Source of the DNA: Dehalococcoidia bacterium
GTDB lineage: Bacteria; Chloroflexota; Dehalococcoidia; Plut-88900
Direction: 5' to 3'
NCBI GenBank assembly: GCA_965197585.1
Contig: OZ240215.1
Coordinates: 992,001-1,056,000, forward strand
DNA length: 64,000 nt
Of the stretch, positions 15,810 through 56,269 are shown piece by piece. The notes under the pieces were generated by a model. The model was given only the letters and a program-made list of their open reading frames with translations. It had not been told where the DNA came from and searched no databases. Position numbers and translations under genes: made by a program. The stretch's first letter is position 1. Each line of letters opens with the position of its first letter.

Positions 15810-16865
15810 TGTAAGTGTTAGGTAATTCGTTGACAGATTGGTATAAGAGGCCAACACCAATCTGGAGGCGAGAATGCGAGACAATAGCAAGGACCTCACC
15901 CTTGAACGGAACTACATTCAGAAGTGGCGGTTCCTCATCCATGAGTATCAACTGGTCAAGGCAGGGAAGCATCCCCGTTTCCGCTTCGCCCAGGACTTCT
16001 ACTCCTTCCACGGCACTAGCCGTCAGACCTTCGCCAAGTACTACAACCGGTTCCTCCTTTCCCCCTCCGACAACGCCTTCCTCCCCCGTAAGCGGGGTCC
16101 CGGGTGGAAGTCCCGCCGCACCCTGCCCTACATTGAGCAGAAGGTCATCAACGAGCGCCTTAACGGTACCAACCGTTACGAGATCTATGCCATACTCAAA
16201 CCCATCCTTAAACACAACACCCCTAAGCCCTCCACCATCTACGCCATCACCAGACGCCACGGTTTCAATAGGCTCACAAAGCCGATGCAGCAGTCGAAGC
16301 GCAAGATCATCAAGACCCGGGCAGGAGAGCTGGGCCACCTGGACAGCCACCACCTCAGCCGGGATACCATCGTGGGCACCAAGCACCGCTACTACCTGGT
16401 GGGCCTCATCGACGCCTACACCCGTCTGGCCTGGGCCGAAGTGGTCGGAGACATCAAGAGTCTCTCCGTTATGTTTGCTACTCTGAAGTCCATCAATTTC
16501 CTTAACGTGGAGTACGGCATCCAATTCGAGGCCATCCTCACCGACAACGGCCCCGAGATGGCCTCCCCAAGGAACACCGAGGGCCACCCCATGGAACGGA
16601 TGCTCAATGAGCTGGGCATAAAGCACCGCTACACCCGACCCTATAGGCCCCAGACCAACGGGAAGATAGAGCGGTTCTGGAGAACCTTGAACGAGGACCT
16701 GCTGGAGGGGACAACCTTCGAATCGGTCTCGGAACTGAAGGACGAGCTTCAGCAATACCTGATCTACTACAATACTCAGAGACCCCACCAGGCAATGGAC
16801 GGAAAGACCCCTTTGGAGACCCTTAAATCCACCTAATTCTGTCAACGAATTACCTGACATCCACA
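15810..16865 (+). mobile_element. IS481-family insertion sequence, 1056 bp, apparently intact
   Basis: 28-bp imperfect TIRs TGTAAGTGTTAGGTAATTCGTTGACAGA (15810-15837) and TCTGTCAACGAATTACCTGACATCCACA (16838-16865); TGT...ACA ends; 5-bp target duplication ATTCC. Confidence 0.9.
15874..16836 (+). CDS. IS481-family DDE transposase (integrase core)
   Basis: GELGHLD, LTDNGPE, PYRPQTNGKIERFW, YYNTQRPHQ. Confidence 0.92.
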   Translation: MRDNSKDLTLERNYIQKWRFLIHEYQLVKAGKHPRFRFAQDFYSFHGTSRQTFAKYYNRFLLSPSDNAFLPRKRGPGWKSRRTLPYIEQKVINERLNGTNRYEIYAILKPILKHNTPKPSTIYAITRRHGFNRLTKPMQQSKRKIIKTRAGELGHLDSHHLSRDTIVGTKHRYYLVGLIDAYTRLAWAEVVGDIKSLSVMFATLKSINFLNVEYGIQFEAILTDNGPEMASPRNTEGHPMERMLNELGIKHRYTRPYRPQTNGKIERFWRTLNEDLLEGTTFESVSELKDELQQYLIYYNTQRPHQAMDGKTPLETLKST

Positions 16866-16963: not shown

Positions 16964-17625
16964 TGACACGAACCCCTTGACTACATTGAAACATGTGTAC
17001 TATATTCACTCCCGACTAGCCAGTCACACACCCTAACCCCAAAGGAGGAACCCAAAACCCAAGGGGAAGCCCAGCCCCGGCCCCCGAGGACTCAACGTCT
17101 AAGCCCATCCCAAAGAGCGACGCGCGCCGCTCCATGGCTCAAGCAAACCACGCCATCTCCTCGTACAAAGGCCCCGGCTATCCCCTTCCCCCCGCCCCAG
17201 GCGATAGAAGACGCCCTGGTTCGTTAAGTTCCCATAGTGCCTTTCTGCCCTCTATCTCAACAGAGGGTCTCGTCCTTTTGGCAGCCGCCGGAGCCTCTTA
17301 ACCGCTCCCCAACGCTGCTCTGTCCGGAACGCCGCCGCTCCCCGCTCCAGGATGCGCCGGCGTATAGTGGCCCTGGCTGCGCCTCACAGCGTGGAACGTC
17401 CGCCCCTGGCGGACATTGCGGCCATTCTTTGAGGAGCCTGGCTCGAACTGTCGGCTCGAACCGGTCGCCCCGTGCGCCGAGCGCATGAGAACGCCAGCCG
17501 ACGCGTCCCAGCCCCCGGGCGCCGAGCTATAGATGCACTGAAACAGGGGCAGCGTCCAACGGGCGTCTTCCATCGCCAAACCCCAGCAAAACAACCGGAA
17601 CTTCAACCTCACAACCGAATATCGT
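16964..17625 (+). ncRNA. Candidate structured non-coding element, copy 1 of 2
   Basis: Homologous to 54395-55082; no shared ORF; inverted repeat 17200-17216 / 17561-17577. Confidence 0.4.
16977..17006 (+). promoter_or_regulatory. Sigma70-like promoter with LexA-like box (copy 1)
   Basis: TTGACT-18 nt-TATATT; AAAC-ATGT-GTAC abuts the -10; same arrangement at 54408-54437. Confidence 0.55.
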
Positions 17626-17667
17626 AAGGGCCGTTGCCATACCCTTCATTCTGGGGGCGTCGGAGCG

Positions 17668-18900
17668 CTATTGCAGAAACCGCCAGTCGTAGGCGGCGGT
17701 GGAGATGATTTCCGGTCCGTCGGCAGTGATGATCATCTGCTCCCCGAGCTTGGCCGCCTCCCGTGCCCCGACCTCGCCCACGTAGCATTCCAGGGTCACT
17801 ACCATGTTCTCTTCCAGTGCCCCCGGCTCGTGACCGAAGCCGTGGGGCCGCCAGTCGGGGTAGGCGATGGCGGGCCATTCGTCGGACATGCCTGCGCCGT
17901 GGGACATGACCGGGTAGCGTTGTGCCTTGTACTTTTCCGGGAACTGGTAGGACTTTTCGGATATCTCCTGGTAGGTCATGCCGGGCCGGAACAGGTCCAT
18001 CGACTGTTGGATGAACTCGTATCCTGTCTTGTATACGTCCATCTGCTCGGGAGTGGGGTTGCCATCGCCGCAGAGGTAGGTCCGGGACACGCAGAGGAAG
18101 TAGCCCATCGGCCCGGCCATGTCGATGTCAAAGCCGACAAGTTCCCCCGGCCTGACGAGCCTGCCCGAGGAGTCTTTGAACCACGGGTTCATGTTTCCGC
18201 CTGCGGCAAGAAGCTTGCCGTCGGTGTGCTCACCGCCATACTTGAGGTTCGTGCCTGCGAGTATCGACCAGAGCTCATCCTCCGTGACGCCGGGCTTAAT
18301 AGCCCGGCGGGTGTTGTCGATGGCTACGTCGGCGATGGCTGCGGCCTGGCGCATCAGGGTGAGCTCGTCGGGGGTCTTGATGGAGCGGGCTCTCTCGATT
18401 GCTTCCCAGCCGTCCGCGAGGCGGATGCCGTGACGTTTGGCGGCCTCGAAACCCGTGGTGTCCAGTTTGTCCAGCCCGATTCGCTCGGAGGCGATGCCAA
18501 GCTCTTCCAGGACGCTCTTCACGCCCGCGGCCCAGAGCTCGACGGCCTCGTCCATGTAGACGCCGCAGGGGAAGAAGTCCCAGACCTGTCCGGGCCTGAC
18601 GCGCAGCTCGTCGGTGTCCTGGGCGCTGGACATGTCGCCGAAAAGGACGGGCGCGCCCTCGCGGGGGATGAGGGCATAGCGCTGGAAGCGGCGCAGGTTG
18701 TAAGCGCCGGAGGATCGGGAGCCGGTGGCGTAGCGCACGTTGACGGGGTCGAACATGAGAATGCCGCCGAGGTCCAGTCGGGCCATTTCGCCCTGGAGCC
18801 GGGCGAGGCGGTCTCTTTTGAGCCTTGCAATGTCGACCCGCTCCTCGAAATCGACCATCTGCTGCCCTACGAGGTCCTTTTGATGCGCTGCCTTAGGCAT
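17668..18900 (-). CDS. M24 peptidase-fold protein, DddP-like subfamily
   Basis: DPVNVRYATG, LLAAGGNMNPWF, FDIDMAGPMGY, HGAGMSDEWP, LECYVG; GGAGG SD. Confidence 0.8.
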   Translation of the reverse strand: MPKAAHQKDLVGQQMVDFEERVDIARLKRDRLARLQGEMARLDLGGILMFDPVNVRYATGSRSSGAYNLRRFQRYALIPREGAPVLFGDMSSAQDTDELRVRPGQVWDFFPCGVYMDEAVELWAAGVKSVLEELGIASERIGLDKLDTTGFEAAKRHGIRLADGWEAIERARSIKTPDELTLMRQAAAIADVAIDNTRRAIKPGVTEDELWSILAGTNLKYGGEHTDGKLLAAGGNMNPWFKDSSGRLVRPGELVGFDIDMAGPMGYFLCVSRTYLCGDGNPTPEQMDVYKTGYEFIQQSMDLFRPGMTYQEISEKSYQFPEKYKAQRYPVMSHGAGMSDEWPAIAYPDWRPHGFGHEPGALEENMVVTLECYVGEVGAREAAKLGEQMIITADGPEIISTAAYDWRFLQ

Positions 18901-18922
18901 GGTGTACCTCCTTGGCTCGGGG

Positions 18923-20089
18923 CTAGGTGTTATATGCGCCTGCTTGCCATGACCAGGTCTTTCTCCAGTTCCTGGGCACGTGGCGTAATCGATCGAAGCG
19001 GAAGGCTGATATATCCACGGCGCACTCTCCGTCGACAATCAGCTCCTTGACGGCGAGGCCCGTGGCGGGAGAAAGGCCGAACCCGTTGCCCGACGCCGAT
19101 ACGATGACGAAACCCTCTGGGTCACTGAGCTTGTCGATGATGGGGATGCTGTCCGGGGTCTGCTCTACGACTCCCGCCCAGGAGCGGAGGACTCGGGTGT
19201 CCTCCAGAGCTGGGAAGAGCTCGGCGAGACGGCGGGAGATGTTGCGGACCAGGGGCGTGTTGGGCTTGGGGGGCGACTCCTGGAGGGCCACGTCTATCCA
19301 TTCGTGGGGGCCGCCGCCGAATACCAGGTTGCCCCGGAGCGTCTGCCGTCCGTAGAGGCCGTTACCGGCTATATATGTGCTGAATCTCGGCTCTAACGGC
19401 ACGGTGGCGATGATCTCCACGCGGCCGGGAGCGACAGGAATGTGAACCCCGACCATGTCGCCAATGAGCCCCGACTGAGGCCCTGCAGCGCTTACCACCA
19501 CGTCGGCGGATACGGTACCCCGGGTGGTCTGGACGCCCTGCACACGGCCCCCCGACACGTCGATGCCCGTGACTGCGGTGTCCTGGTATATGCGACCGCC
19601 CCGGTCCTGGCAGGCCCAGGCGTAGGCTTGCACAGCGCGCTGGGGGTTGGCGTGTCCGGCGTTGGGAAAATACATGCCGCCCAAGGCCTTGTCTGTAAGC
19701 TCAGGAACTAAGGACCGCATTTCTTCGGGGTCCAGGGCCCGGGCCTCGACCCCGTATTTGGGGGCGTTGATGGACATGGCCCTGACGAGGTCCATCTCCT
19801 CCTCCCACATGGCGACCTGAAGACGCCCCTCGTGGATGAACTCGGTGGGGTAGCCAAGCTCCTCGTGGAGGGTGATCCAGGTCTCTCGGGCGCGGGTGGC
19901 CATGGGGATGGCAAAGGGCTCATCGGCGCGGGGACTCATGCTCCCGCCGTTGCGCGCCGAGGCCTCCTCGCCTATCAGACCCTTCTCAAGCACGACGATG
20001 TTAACGCCCGCATTTGCAAGGAAGTAGGCGGAGCTGAGCCCGGAAACCCCGCCCCCGATAATCGCAACCTCGGCGCTGTCCAGCTTCAA
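18923..20089 (-). CDS. FAD-dependent amine/amino-acid oxidase subunit (HcnC/OoxB/SoxB-like)
   Basis: IIGGGVSG, EASARNGG, SWAG, GNGFGLSPATG; directly follows the upstream gene's stop. Confidence 0.85.
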   Translation of the reverse strand: MKLDSAEVAIIGGGVSGLSSAYFLANAGVNIVVLEKGLIGEEASARNGGSMSPRADEPFAIPMATRARETWITLHEELGYPTEFIHEGRLQVAMWEEEMDLVRAMSINAPKYGVEARALDPEEMRSLVPELTDKALGGMYFPNAGHANPQRAVQAYAWACQDRGGRIYQDTAVTGIDVSGGRVQGVQTTRGTVSADVVVSAAGPQSGLIGDMVGVHIPVAPGRVEIIATVPLEPRFSTYIAGNGLYGRQTLRGNLVFGGGPHEWIDVALQESPPKPNTPLVRNISRRLAELFPALEDTRVLRSWAGVVEQTPDSIPIIDKLSDPEGFVIVSASGNGFGLSPATGLAVKELIVDGECAVDISAFRFDRLRHVPRNWRKTWSWQAGAYNT

Positions 20090-54394: not shown

Positions 54395-55082
54395 TGACAC
54401 GAACCCCTTGACCAAACTTGTACACATGTACTATATTCACCCCCGATAGGCCAATCACTCACCCTAAACCCAAAGGAGGAACCACAACCCAGGGGGAAGC
54501 CCACCCGACCCCACCCGAGGACTCAACGCCTAAGCCCATCCCAACGGCCCTCGCGCAGGCCCGCGGCACAAGCAAACGACGCCATCTCCTCTTACCGGGC
54601 CCCGTGCCCCCTTCCCTGACCACTAGGCGATGGAAGACGCCCTGGACCGTACTTGAAAGTCTCCTTACGGAGCAACCTTGTCCTATGGAGCGGAACGGGG
54701 CAGCCCGTAGCCGAGGCCCGCTCGGCTCTCCGTCCGCTTCCTCAAATAAACTGGGCTGCCGTCGTCTCCCGGCTCCGGGACATCGTCGGCTAACTGGATA
54801 CCCCGTACTCCTGCGAGGGGAACTGACCCTGGACTTTCCCCTTCCTGCACCCGCCTCCGGCGGACAGCGCAGCCAACCCTGTATCGGAGCCTATGACGGA
54901 TGACGGACCCGTACGTCCGACCATACTTCCAGGTCTAGGCGGCGGCGGAGCCCCGTCCCCACGTTCCCGGGATGCCTCCATGCCCGCATTATCTAAATAT
55001 AGGGAGCCGAATCCGGCAAGCGTCTTTCATCGCCTTCCCCCTACTACACCAAACCGAAACCCCAACACCCAATCGAAGATGG
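54395..55082 (+). ncRNA. Candidate structured non-coding element, copy 2 of 2
   Basis: Homologous to 16964-17625; inverted repeat 54625-54640 / 55020-55035. Confidence 0.4.
54408..54437 (+). promoter_or_regulatory. Sigma70-like promoter with LexA-like box (copy 2)
   Basis: TTGACC-18 nt-TATATT; GTAC-ACAT-GTAC at 54420-54431. Confidence 0.55.
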
Positions 55083-55209
55083 AACATCCGCCTCTGGAGG
55101 ACTGAATAACCCACCCCCCTCACCCGAGGGGAGCCTGTCCGCCTTAGGCGGATCATTCCCGACCCCGATCGTGACTCCCTGTGTTGGAAGACGCCTTGGA
55201 ACGTAGTGG

Positions 55210-55467
55210 CTACACCCCCTCTGGGCGGCGGGCCAGGGCCGACTCTATGGCGGTGACCAGGGCCATCGCCGACTCCGGCGTGAGTTCCACGGCCACCCTC
55301 GCGCTCAGACCCCTGTCCTCATTCACGAAGCTGATGTTGAGTGAATGGTCCATGGGGGCGTGATAGGGGTGGTCATAGGTGACGTTGGCCTGCTTTAGCG
55401 GGAACCAACCCTGGTGCCCCTTCCCACTCCCCGAGACTTCAACCTTTTCGACAATCATGGTGCACAT
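55210..55467 (-). CDS. Small conserved protein, DUF6295-like
   Basis: MCT...GSGKG..GWF...YDHPYHAP..H.LNI.F...RVAVEL. Confidence 0.75.
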   Translation of the reverse strand: MCTMIVEKVEVSGSGKGHQGWFPLKQANVTYDHPYHAPMDHSLNISFVNEDRGLSARVAVELTPESAMALVTAIESALARRPEGV

Positions 55468-55513
55468 GTTTTTCTCCAGCGTGATTAGACTCAACTCTGA
55501 GTAGGCATGAACG

Positions 55514-56269
55514 CTAGCTGAGGTGCCTCTCGAAGAAGTCCCAGATCCTGGCCCAGCCGTCGACAGCATGCTCTACGCGGTAGGCGGGGCGATGGTAGTA
55601 AAAGAAGCCGTGGCCCGCGTTGGGATACCTGTGGAACTCGTAGTTCTTCCCGTGCTTCTTCAGCTCGGCTTCATGAATGTCTACCTGCTCCGGCGTTGGA
55701 GATTGGTCATCCAAGCCGAAGAGCCCGAGGATGGGGCACGAGACGTTCGCAGTGTAGTCGATTGGAGCGACAGGGTTCTTGTCGTTTAGCTGGTCCTTGG
55801 ACATGACGACTCCCCCGCCCCAGCAGTCGACCCCGGCATCGAATCCCGACTCCCGGCCCACGGTTAACATGACGTGTCGGCCGCCGGAGCAAGTACCGAA
55901 CACGCCGACCTTGCGGTTGTGGTACGGCAGGACCCGGAGGTATCTCATAGCCCCTACGATGTCACCGACAGCCTGATCATCGGGGACACCACCGTCGGCC
56001 CAGACCCTGGCGCCAACGTCTTCAGGGTCGCCGTGACCCTCGCGATGATAGAGATTTGGTGAGATGGCCGCGAAGCCGTGGTGCGCGAACCGGCGCGCGG
56101 CCTCCCTGTACCACTCGTCCCAGCCGGGCAGGTGATGGATGAGCACCACGCCCGGGAAGGGGCCGCTGCCCAGCGGACGGGCGAAGTAGGCGTTGATAGA
56201 GTCTCCGTTGTGTCCATGCATGGTTATGGTCTCGGCCAGCATGCCTTCGTACATATTCGTCTGGTACAT
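55514..56269 (-). CDS. Dienelactone hydrolase family protein
   Basis: GTCSGG (Cys nucleophile), D, AGHGF. Confidence 0.9.
   Translation of the reverse strand: MYQTNMYEGMLAETITMHGHNGDSINAYFARPLGSGPFPGVVLIHHLPGWDEWYREAARRFAHHGFAAISPNLYHREGHGDPEDVGARVWADGGVPDDQAVGDIVGAMRYLRVLPYHNRKVGVFGTCSGGRHVMLTVGRESGFDAGVDCWGGGVVMSKDQLNDKNPVAPIDYTANVSCPILGLFGLDDQSPTPEQVDIHEAELKKHGKNYEFHRYPNAGHGFFYYHRPAYRVEHAVDGWARIWDFFERHLS

Follow-up and report, generated by a model that had tools for sequence, protein, structure and literature searches.

The stretch of DNA analysed here, 64,000 nucleotides of a Dehalococcoidia bacterium (contig OZ240215.1, positions 992,001 to 1,056,000; hereafter the window), carries two copies of a repeated element without an open reading frame (ORF), which is probably a non-autonomous DDE-type transposable element, an oversized miniature inverted-repeat transposable element (MITE) that is specific to one genus, with a promoter and a structured non-coding RNA as its cargo. 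The copy number, the absence of an ORF, the promoter motif, the compensatory pairing, the terminal repeats, the 5-bp duplications, the empty sites and the spacing to a TTGAC box are established by direct observation. A complete unit would be bounded by two matching, imperfect terminal repeats of 27 bp and contain a sigma-70-type promoter followed by a non-coding RNA of 600–650 nt; the RNA would consist of an AAGGAGG motif, a rod-like 5′ domain of 175 nt, a helix (P7) around a variable structured centre, and a tail rich in C and A and poor in G. Little is understood of how bacterial promoters and regulatory RNAs come to stand before new genes. In this family the whole vehicle can be seen, from its ends and the duplication at the target to the empty sites and the target itself, and the cargo is a promoter and a 600-nt RNA with a core invariant over nine species.

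A multicopy family confined to one genus

The genome to which the window belongs (G000; 3.43 Mb on one contig, 92% complete) was compared within its genus (nine genomes in all, G000–G008), with three genomes of the family's other genera, and with a class sample of 151 genomes. By BLAST, copy 1 (window 16964-17625) is 80% identical to window 54395-54645 (G000:C1:1046395-1046645) over query positions 1–256 (E 3.4e-55), and the pairwise alignment of the two copies contains the blocks CCCGAGGACTCAACG.CTAAGCCCATCCCAA, CAAGCAAAC.ACGCCATCTCCTC and AGGCGATRGAAGACGCCCTGG, a CCGCC-nnn-GGCGG hairpin, GCGTCTTYCATCGCC and an A/C-rich tail. The colinear homology of these two gaps had been noticed in an earlier inspection of the letters (the sequence-only reading), and every block listed there is present in the alignment. 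A nhmmer profile built on the first BLAST matches and run on G000 gave 70 places, of which 57 are full-length copies with nhmmer bounds 600–825 nt apart; complete units measure 0.7–0.9 kb. The suspicion of a multicopy family, raised from two copies, is thus far surpassed. Full-length copies are 75–96% identical to their nearest paralog; at ~0.7 kb each, the 57 copies occupy about 1.2% of the 3.43-Mb genome. Clustering sorts their centres into eight subfamilies and five singletons.

A covariance model of the conserved 5′ domain, R1, has 58 matches in G000 and 23–70 per genome over all nine genomes of the genus. None of the three genomes of the family's other genera matches; at class level, 6 of the 151 genomes do, all six in this genus, and none of the other 145. 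The restriction of the element to the genus follows from these R1 searches of the family (12 genomes) and the class. A motif scan of a species-representative genome collection returned, among the matches listed, only records titled 'MAG: Dehalococcoidia bacterium'. Viral contigs had no element matches, and five short metagenome contigs had them. Short tandem partial duplications of the 5′ domain (model positions ~31–133) were seen beside full copies in G004, for example at C1:667242-667867 and 1019007-1019294.

Anatomy of the element and absence of coding

Some copies begin with an outer 5′ end of 21 nt (tgatcccgttcacatagaggg), which is followed by the promoter region TGACA(C/T)...CCCCTTGAC, with a 17- or 18-nt spacer and TAT(A/T)(T/A)T. 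The invariant AAGGAGG lies ~35 nt past the −10 box and is followed by the 175-nt conserved domain, after which GGCGATGGAAG(ACGCC/GTCC) leads into a centre of 300–520 nt. Beyond the centre stand (GGCGT/GGAC)CTTCCATCGCC, the C/A-rich tail, zero to three hairpins of the repetitive extragenic palindromic (REP) type, and ACTGAA(G/T)AA; GTGTCACTAAYCTACCGAACGAGTACA is the 3′ terminus in 27 copies. All 57 copies keep the promoter motif, and its distance to the conserved core is constant. In each window copy, a sigma-70-type promoter matches 10 of 12 consensus positions, compared with means of 0.3 and 0.1 sites in shuffled controls, which upholds the earlier description of the unit as promoter-bearing. 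No intrinsic terminator was found in either window copy; the tail has a GC skew of −0.41 to −0.50, and a Rho gene is present in G000.

No reading frame is common to the 57 copies. The longest open stretches (up to 254 codons) vary in frame and strand, just as the sequence-only reading had found no ORF shared by its two copies, and AAGGAGG is nowhere followed by a start codon in the alignment. Since the plus strand is only 16% T (and 37% C), long open stretches are expected. Homologs with a constrained ORF, a possibility that the same reading had set against itself, were looked for, and no relative has an ORF under codon-level constraint. Rfam 15 gave no match at gathering threshold in the whole window, and a permissive search (E<=10) of copy 1 gave four matches, at chance level; the unit thus matches no Rfam family, as had been suspected.

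Terminal repeats, target duplications and empty sites

A 27-nt 3′-end motif occurs 28 times in G000, every time at an element end, and a 5′-end motif was found at 16 places, of which 13 are element starts and three are solo. The 5′ end TGATCCCGTTCACATAGAGGGGTGACA agrees with the reverse-complemented 3′ end in 13 columns (by eye, with shifted gaps, in ~17–18 of 27), and the terminal repeats are imperfect 27-bp inverted repeats. In the 15 copies with both ends, the 5-bp flanks agree on average in 4.0 of 5 positions and in at least 4 of 5 in 11 copies, whereas mismatched pairings agree in a mean of 1.39 and reach at least 4 of 5 in 4 of 210 cases.

Two elements were tested for empty sites, and both have exact ones. 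The element p1428077 has identical junctions in G000 and G005, an exact empty site in G002 and G003, and is absent in G001; it is 872 nt long between its terminal repeats (TGAT...GAGTACA), and the two points at which BLAST homology to the empty sites stops lie 874 nt from each other, owing to an overlap of the flanking repeat. The element p889242 is absent in G003, exactly at its ends. The target is also recognizable. Five variable bases follow the 3′ end of the element, and TTGAC stands at +6 to +10, with at least four of its five letters in 18 of 27 copies compared with 1.5% of random positions. The empty sites already hold a TTGAG or TTGAC box, and this box together with the spacing at the 3′ end indicates insertion at a site 5 bp before a −35-like box.

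A predicted conserved RNA structure

The structure model comes from RNAalifold folds of each subfamily followed by covariance-model fitting; RNAalifold on plain MAFFT alignments of all copies yields structure fragments only. The per-subfamily folds agree on a rod-like 5′ domain (helices H1–H6) and on a 15–16-bp helix P7 that closes the centre. In 61 distinct sequences fitted to R1, 95.6% of the cells of the 5′ domain are paired, compared with 32–52% when the partners are slid, and double-sided changes affect 13 of 32 pairs (84 cells) compared with 3–6 pairs (4–23 cells); none of 500 shuffles reaches the observed pairing values. The loops of the domain are invariant in these sequences, which come from nine species, and the centres cannot be aligned between subfamilies. 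P7 comes in two versions whose arms covary, GGAAGACGCC/GGCGUCUUCC and GGAAGGUCC/GGACCUUCC. Compensatory changes are thus present in both the 5′ domain and P7, and the covariation that the sequence-only reading had named as the mark of a structured RNA has been found.

The paired positions also differ between strands. Read on the plus strand, the first 10 bp of P7 have 26 G-U and 7 A-C oppositions over 82 elements, and the 5′ domain has 46 and 27. P7 forms in the plus-strand minimum free energy (MFE) folds of both window copies, and the MFE fold of copy 1 reproduces H1–H6. For the minus strand of copy 2, the native MFE shows no advantage over that of shuffled sequences (z +0.90).

A candidate transposase

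Among the resident insertion sequences (ISs), an IS481-like IS has the ends most similar to those of the element: its left end and the element 3′ end are identical at 16 of 27 positions, and the repeat length and the 5-bp duplication are alike. This IS is present in 21 copies of 89–99.8% identity and looks active; it has 27-bp terminal repeats and makes a 5-bp duplication, ATTCC, in the REP hairpin GTCATTCCGAGGCTCCGCGAGGAAT. Its transposase scores 184 bits with NCBIfam IS481 (NF033577), below the cut-off of 224. Owing to the end similarity and the equal repeat and duplication lengths, an IS481-type DDE transposase is the likeliest mover and may have mobilized the element in trans. Most copies look old and would now be fixed, as close IS481-like copies (>=84% identical) were found in only five of the nine element-bearing genomes (E<=1e-20) and no matching autonomous element is present in G000. 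By coordinate comparison, five IS481-like copies lie within ~500 nt of an RNA element.

A 375–380-aa rve transposase beside the element m2983120, together with its relative in G008, was considered as a partner and rejected; its ends differ (TGTATAGACCGGGGACATAGGTAACA) and it sits in REP hairpins. A second rve-type IS with ends TGTATAGACCGGGGACATAGGTAACA was observed at L003:1791-3082 (G000) and L058:21-1284 (G008), with an ORF of 375–401 aa, only 30–32% identity to the IS481-like transposase and, in G008, 14 or more matches. Its insertion site is the loop of the REP hairpin CTCTCCCTTAA.GGCCCTAAGGGAGAG, which is frequently found ahead of RNA elements.

Searches of G000 gave no match to RVT_1, with positive controls working, and none to the TnpB zinc-ribbon PF07282. 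The IS110-family recombinase has nine matches, two of which adjoin elements, and 55 of the 57 elements are without one nearby. The two adjoining IS110-family genes (G000:C1:1396256-1397340 and 3412340-3413422) lie directly upstream of elements and are co-oriented with them; a long palindrome ..ATATATCAGCCATGTTGC..GCAACATGGCTGATATAT.. stands between IS110 gene and element and, by eye, precedes about six more elements without a recombinase.

Transcription, neighbouring genes and exchange among copies

The unit would be transcribed from its own promoter, and once inserted it may act as a mobile promoter and RNA cassette before unrelated genes. Either a long structured leader could then run on into the gene that follows, or a separate RNA could be made that Rho terminates at the C-rich tail; a Rho-dependent terminator (rut site) is a C-rich, G-poor and weakly structured stretch. 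In RNA libraries, contigs from four studies lie on the element interior of copy 2 (window 54511-54944), for example a 350-nt contig on 54680-55022 and a 290-nt contig on 54569-54856. The promoter bin (54410-54510) and the tail bin (55016-55116) have next to no cover in any of the four RNA runs, although contigs cannot show starts or ends, and no contig of these runs bridges the element and a neighbouring gene. The metatranscriptome, which the sequence-only reading had proposed to consult, thus places contigs on the element interior but gives neither start, strand nor ends, and lends weak support to transcription.

The crude ORF call, which mis-calls shadow frames, assigns 38 co-oriented and 18 convergent downstream genes and 36 divergent and 15 co-oriented upstream genes. 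The Pfam-supported downstream ORFs (20 of 26 examined, at 30 loci) are co-oriented in 13 cases and convergent in seven. Their families are mutually unrelated (UvrA, Lgt, ZnuA, MFS, amidohydrolases, CoA ligase and others), and no functional coherence is apparent among these 20 ORFs. When the 57 centres were compared by BLAST with the element-masked genome as possible guides, no gene targets were found; the only matches were REP fragments, the sister family described below and one broken copy at 3315508-3316147. The idea of a CsrA sponge was rejected, as no CsrA gene was found in G000. Downstream of p1530642 and m2399691, at G000:C1 ~1531430 and ~2398900, we noticed by eye tRNA-like candidates (GCGGGAGTAGCTCAGCGG... 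and GGGGCGTGGCGCAGTCCGG...) after a promoter-like site.

The differences between copies suggest, at the sequence level, frequent gene conversion within the family. Between the orthologs of p1428077 (L024 vs L073), the 5′ domain differs in patches, for the H6 hairpin has been swapped whole to the other family type and a REP hairpin has been inserted; the centre differs between G000 and G005 by a 37-column gapped stretch and scattered point differences. Such exchange of segments may keep the RNA core of the family uniform without selection on single copies, and it would also leave fewer independent compensatory events.

REP hairpins and a sister family

REP sequences and bacterial interspersed mosaic elements (BIMEs) are clustered short palindromic units of 20–40 nt, a definition that the element, a 0.7-kb unit of ordered modules, does not fit. 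The REP-type hairpin (G/A)TCCGCC-NNN-GG(C/A)GGA occurs 161 times in G000, 98 of them outside elements, compared with 8 in a reversed-sequence control. It is present in the window, for example at 17399-17415 and 55086-55101, and in the element it is an optional insert at two places of the 5′ domain and occurs up to three times in the tail. Several REP cluster types adjoin elements. The claim that the same REP-like cluster lies upstream of both window copies was not confirmed; the types differ (...ctctccctttgatgggagagggctagggtgagggtgatcc... before copy 1 and ...gccgctcaccctgagctccgtcgaagggtcgagcg... before copy 2).

A sister family of ~0.9-kb ORF-less repeats has at least nine copies in G000 and is present in all eight other genomes of the genus. 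Its copies lie on G000:C1, for example L085 (3021985-3023285), L086, L087 and L088, and none lies in the window. It has the same promoter type and a differing 5′ part (GGCCCGAC...GUCGGCCC, AAUCAAGGAAAGG, AAAGGAGUCCCAUGAGUCGCAC), a Shine-Dalgarno-like sequence with ATG and a frame open for 220–325 codons, and no Rfam match. In a partial comparison, mismatches are even over the codon positions (for example 43/41/42, 45/53/35 and 39/33/34). One copy of the first family, p2178911, has a centre like that of the sister family, 86% identical over 448 nt.

The two copies in the window

The coordinates of both copies and of their neighbours are collected in Table 1. Both copies lack the 3′ terminal repeat. 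The centre of copy 1 is a singleton without a relative in G000, and that of copy 2 belongs to a subfamily of ten copies; copy 2 has an ortholog in G002. Each copy runs against a minus-strand gene, so the convergent ends described in the sequence-only reading are confirmed. The peptidase gene facing copy 1 is 84% identical in nucleotides to its ortholog in G001, and G001 and G005 have an element of another subfamily at that place.

Table 1. Features of the window at the two element copies (window coordinates).
Feature	Position	Strand	Evidence or remark
IS481-like insertion sequence, outside the element, directly upstream of copy 1	15810..16865	+	BLAST copies, NCBIfam, end alignment
Copy 1 of the element	16964..17627	+	nhmmer match 1008964-1009627; A-type 5′ end
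Copy 1 promoter: TTGACT, 18-nt spacer, TATATT	16977..17006	+	10/12 consensus matches
Copy 1 conserved 5′ RNA domain, from AAGGAGG, helices H1–H6	17042..17221	+	R1 match L001:1579-1758, 125 bits
Copy 1 P7 5′ arm GGCGATAGAAGACGCC	17200..17215	+	pairs with 17562-17577 in MFE fold; arms compared over 82 elements
Copy 1 P7 3′ arm GGCGTCTTCCATCGCC	17562..17577	+	sequence, MFE fold
Copy 1 C/A-rich, G-poor tail	17578..17627	+	sequence
Peptidase_M24/Creatinase_N gene facing copy 1	17668..19038	-	Pfam
Copy 2 of the element	54395..55109	+	nhmmer match 1046395-1047100; A-type 5′ end
Copy 2 promoter: TTGACC, 18-nt spacer, TATATT	54408..54437	+	10/12 consensus matches
Copy 2 conserved 5′ RNA domain	54473..54647	+	R1 match L010:1579-1753, 172 bits
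Copy 2 P7 5′ arm	54626..54640	+	alifold pairs 171-185 with 568-582; forms in MFE fold
Copy 2 P7 3′ arm GCGTCTTTCATCGCC	55020..55034	+	one G-U pair on the plus strand
Copy 2 C/A-rich tail, one REP-type hairpin TCCGCCTCTGGAGGA, end ACTGAATAA	55035..55109	+	sequence; GC skew −0.41 to −0.50
DUF6295 gene facing copy 2	55210..55569	-	Pfam

Alternative explanations

Several observations weigh against a DDE-type element that carries a structured RNA. Both terminal repeats are present in only 15 of the 57 copies and the 3′ repeat in 27, the window copies being without them. A query with the IS481-like transposase (E<=1e-20) has no match in G004, G006 and G007, all of which have the element, and G005 holds only 32%-identical paralogs yet has the element; in G000, no autonomous partner with matching ends was found, its relatives not having been searched exhaustively. 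On the RNA side, the alignment behind the pairing test was fitted to R1, the compensatory changes trace to a few subfamily-level events, at least one hairpin (H6) moves between copies as a whole cassette, so that independent events are few, and within the subfamily of copy 2 double changes occur in only 2 of 145 predicted pairs. The single-sequence folding energies are unremarkable, with a weak signal for copy 2 (z −0.68; 5 of 20 shuffles fold as well) and a moderate one for copy 1 (z −2.05). The RNA libraries with contigs on the element cover the flanking genes as well, their contigs give neither strand nor ends, and DNA carry-over is possible; co-orientation with the downstream gene is only moderate. 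Between G000 and G005, p1428077 is 87% identical in the 5′ domain and 83% in the centre, and its flanks are 98.6–98.7% identical; as element interiors are less alike than their flanks, purifying selection on single copies is not evident.

Some of the data could point to a family of host RNA genes, that is, a new large structured non-coding RNA under selection that acts in trans, for example by binding a protein or the ribosome, with transposition as merely the historical means of spread. The invariance of the 5′ loops next to unalignable centres speaks for it, as do the intact promoters of copies that are all full length, the retention of elements at orthologous sites whose flanking gene is only 84% identical, the 40–70 copies kept by the three of nine genomes without an IS481-like transposase match, and the excess of G-U over A-C on the plus strand. 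We nevertheless hold such a gene family to be unlikely. No partner protein or target is known and CsrA was not found, individual copies change more quickly than the sequence beside them, a single RNA acting in trans would not usually be encoded by dozens of near-redundant genes, and the 5-bp distance to the −35-like box points to a relation in cis with the neighbouring gene. A DNA-level repeat without RNA function, a large REP/BIME-like composite in which DNA hairpins or inverted repeats bound by proteins underlie the pairing and the promoter match is incidental or tolerated, would account for the abundance of the GTCCGCC-NNN-GGCGGAC type in the genome and inside elements, for the REP clusters adjoining elements, for hairpins exchanged as cassettes and for the weak folding-energy signal. 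It appears quite improbable, however, as it leaves aside the 10/12 promoter that all 57 copies keep at a constant distance from the core, the strand-asymmetric composition with G-U above A-C, the nested asymmetric helices with invariant loops, unlike REP palindromes, and a minus strand that folds no better than shuffled sequence.

The sequence-only reading had proposed a non-coding RNA or an RNA-guided or retro-type element. The structured, ORF-less and non-autonomous element family stands, given the terminal inverted repeats, the 5-bp duplications and the empty sites; the retro-type and RNA-guided parts lack support, as neither RVT_1 nor TnpB was found and IS110-family genes adjoin only two of the 57 copies. 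A long structured RNA whose variable region is closed by an inverted repeat, and the IS110-family matches, two of them directly upstream of elements, would suit a retron, an ORF-less group II intron, a SINE-like (short interspersed nuclear element) repeat, an IS110 bridge RNA or a relative of the TnpB omega-RNA. Such an origin is very improbable in a 92%-complete one-contig genome without a match to RVT_1 or the TnpB zinc ribbon, where terminal inverted repeats and 5-bp duplications point to a DDE transposase. An RNA intermediate, moreover, could not copy the promoter, since this lies inside the repeated unit and upstream of the likely transcription start; the centres form eight subfamilies and five singletons rather than one guide per copy, and no Rfam group II intron or other family matches. 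That the copies are decayed pseudogenes of a multicopy protein-coding gene is hardly credible. The invariant Shine-Dalgarno-like AAGGAGG, the open stretches of up to 254 codons in many copies and the SD-ATG with open frames of the sister family would fit such an origin, but the open stretches differ in frame and strand, as expected in T-poor sequence, no start codon follows AAGGAGG, compensatory changes keep the pairing, and the mismatches of the sister family, in the partial comparison, are even over codon positions.

The non-autonomous DDE-type element with a promoter and a structured RNA thus remains the reading that we favour. A bolder version of it, in which the 175-nt core and P7 form a new large functional RNA class riding a DDE transposon, with active, possibly RNA-polymerase- or RNA-assisted, targeting of promoters and a mobile regulon over dozens of unrelated genes, seems to us unlikely. 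If the RNA is functional, uncultured Dehalococcoidia would harbour a new large RNA class, and one cassette would rewire or co-regulate ~40 unrelated genes per genome. If it is not, what is left is an unusually large and well-defined MITE that targets promoters and is worth masking and annotating in these genomes.

Comparison with known systems

MITEs are non-autonomous derivatives of DDE transposons, the Correia elements of Neisseria being an example, and those of bacteria are usually ~100–400 bp long. Like them, the element lacks a transposase gene, is present in many copies with terminal inverted repeats and target-site duplications, lies between genes and shows presence/absence polymorphism; the predicted promoter is a further likeness, as MITEs can affect their neighbours by promoter activity. 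The element differs from MITEs in its length of 0.7–0.9 kb, in that its most conserved part is an internal RNA domain of 175 nt and not the ends, in that one end or both are missing from over half of the copies, which still keep promoter and RNA core, and in its insertion at a fixed 5 bp from a −35-like TTGAC box.

Large bacterial non-coding RNAs such as OLE, ROOL and GOLLD, all of which are in Rfam, occur in one or a few copies and are not known to travel on a transposon with terminal repeats. The element RNA shares with them the 600–800-nt size class, a highly structured fold (here predicted), the lack of an ORF and the restriction to certain taxa, but it has no Rfam match to any of them. 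The likeness to ISs of the IS481 family lies in the 27-bp terminal repeats starting with TGT, the 5-bp duplication and the 16/27 identity of the ends. The resident IS481-like IS inserts at ATTCC within a REP hairpin, whereas the element stands beside TTGAC and lacks a transposase.

Putative mobile promoters (PMPs), as presented in PMC3575422, are homologous non-coding upstream sequences before non-homologous genes, some of them with RNA motifs; their way of movement is there given as not known, and the Correia elements are mentioned in the same source. The element resembles PMPs, so described, in being a homologous non-coding sequence upstream of unrelated genes. It differs in that its vehicle is identified by terminal repeats, 5-bp duplication and empty sites, in carrying a 600-nt structured RNA, and in lying upstream of the resident promoter instead of replacing it. 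In literature searches on sponge and Chloroflexi non-coding RNAs in metatranscriptomes, on MITEs with IS481 and promoters, and on SAR202, sponge and Dehalococcoidia transposases, nothing among the papers listed describes the family. From MITEs and PMPs the element differs in its size, in an invariant RNA core that outlasts its ends, in its fixed spacing to a −35-like box and in its restriction to a single genus among the 12 genomes of the family and the 151 of the class.

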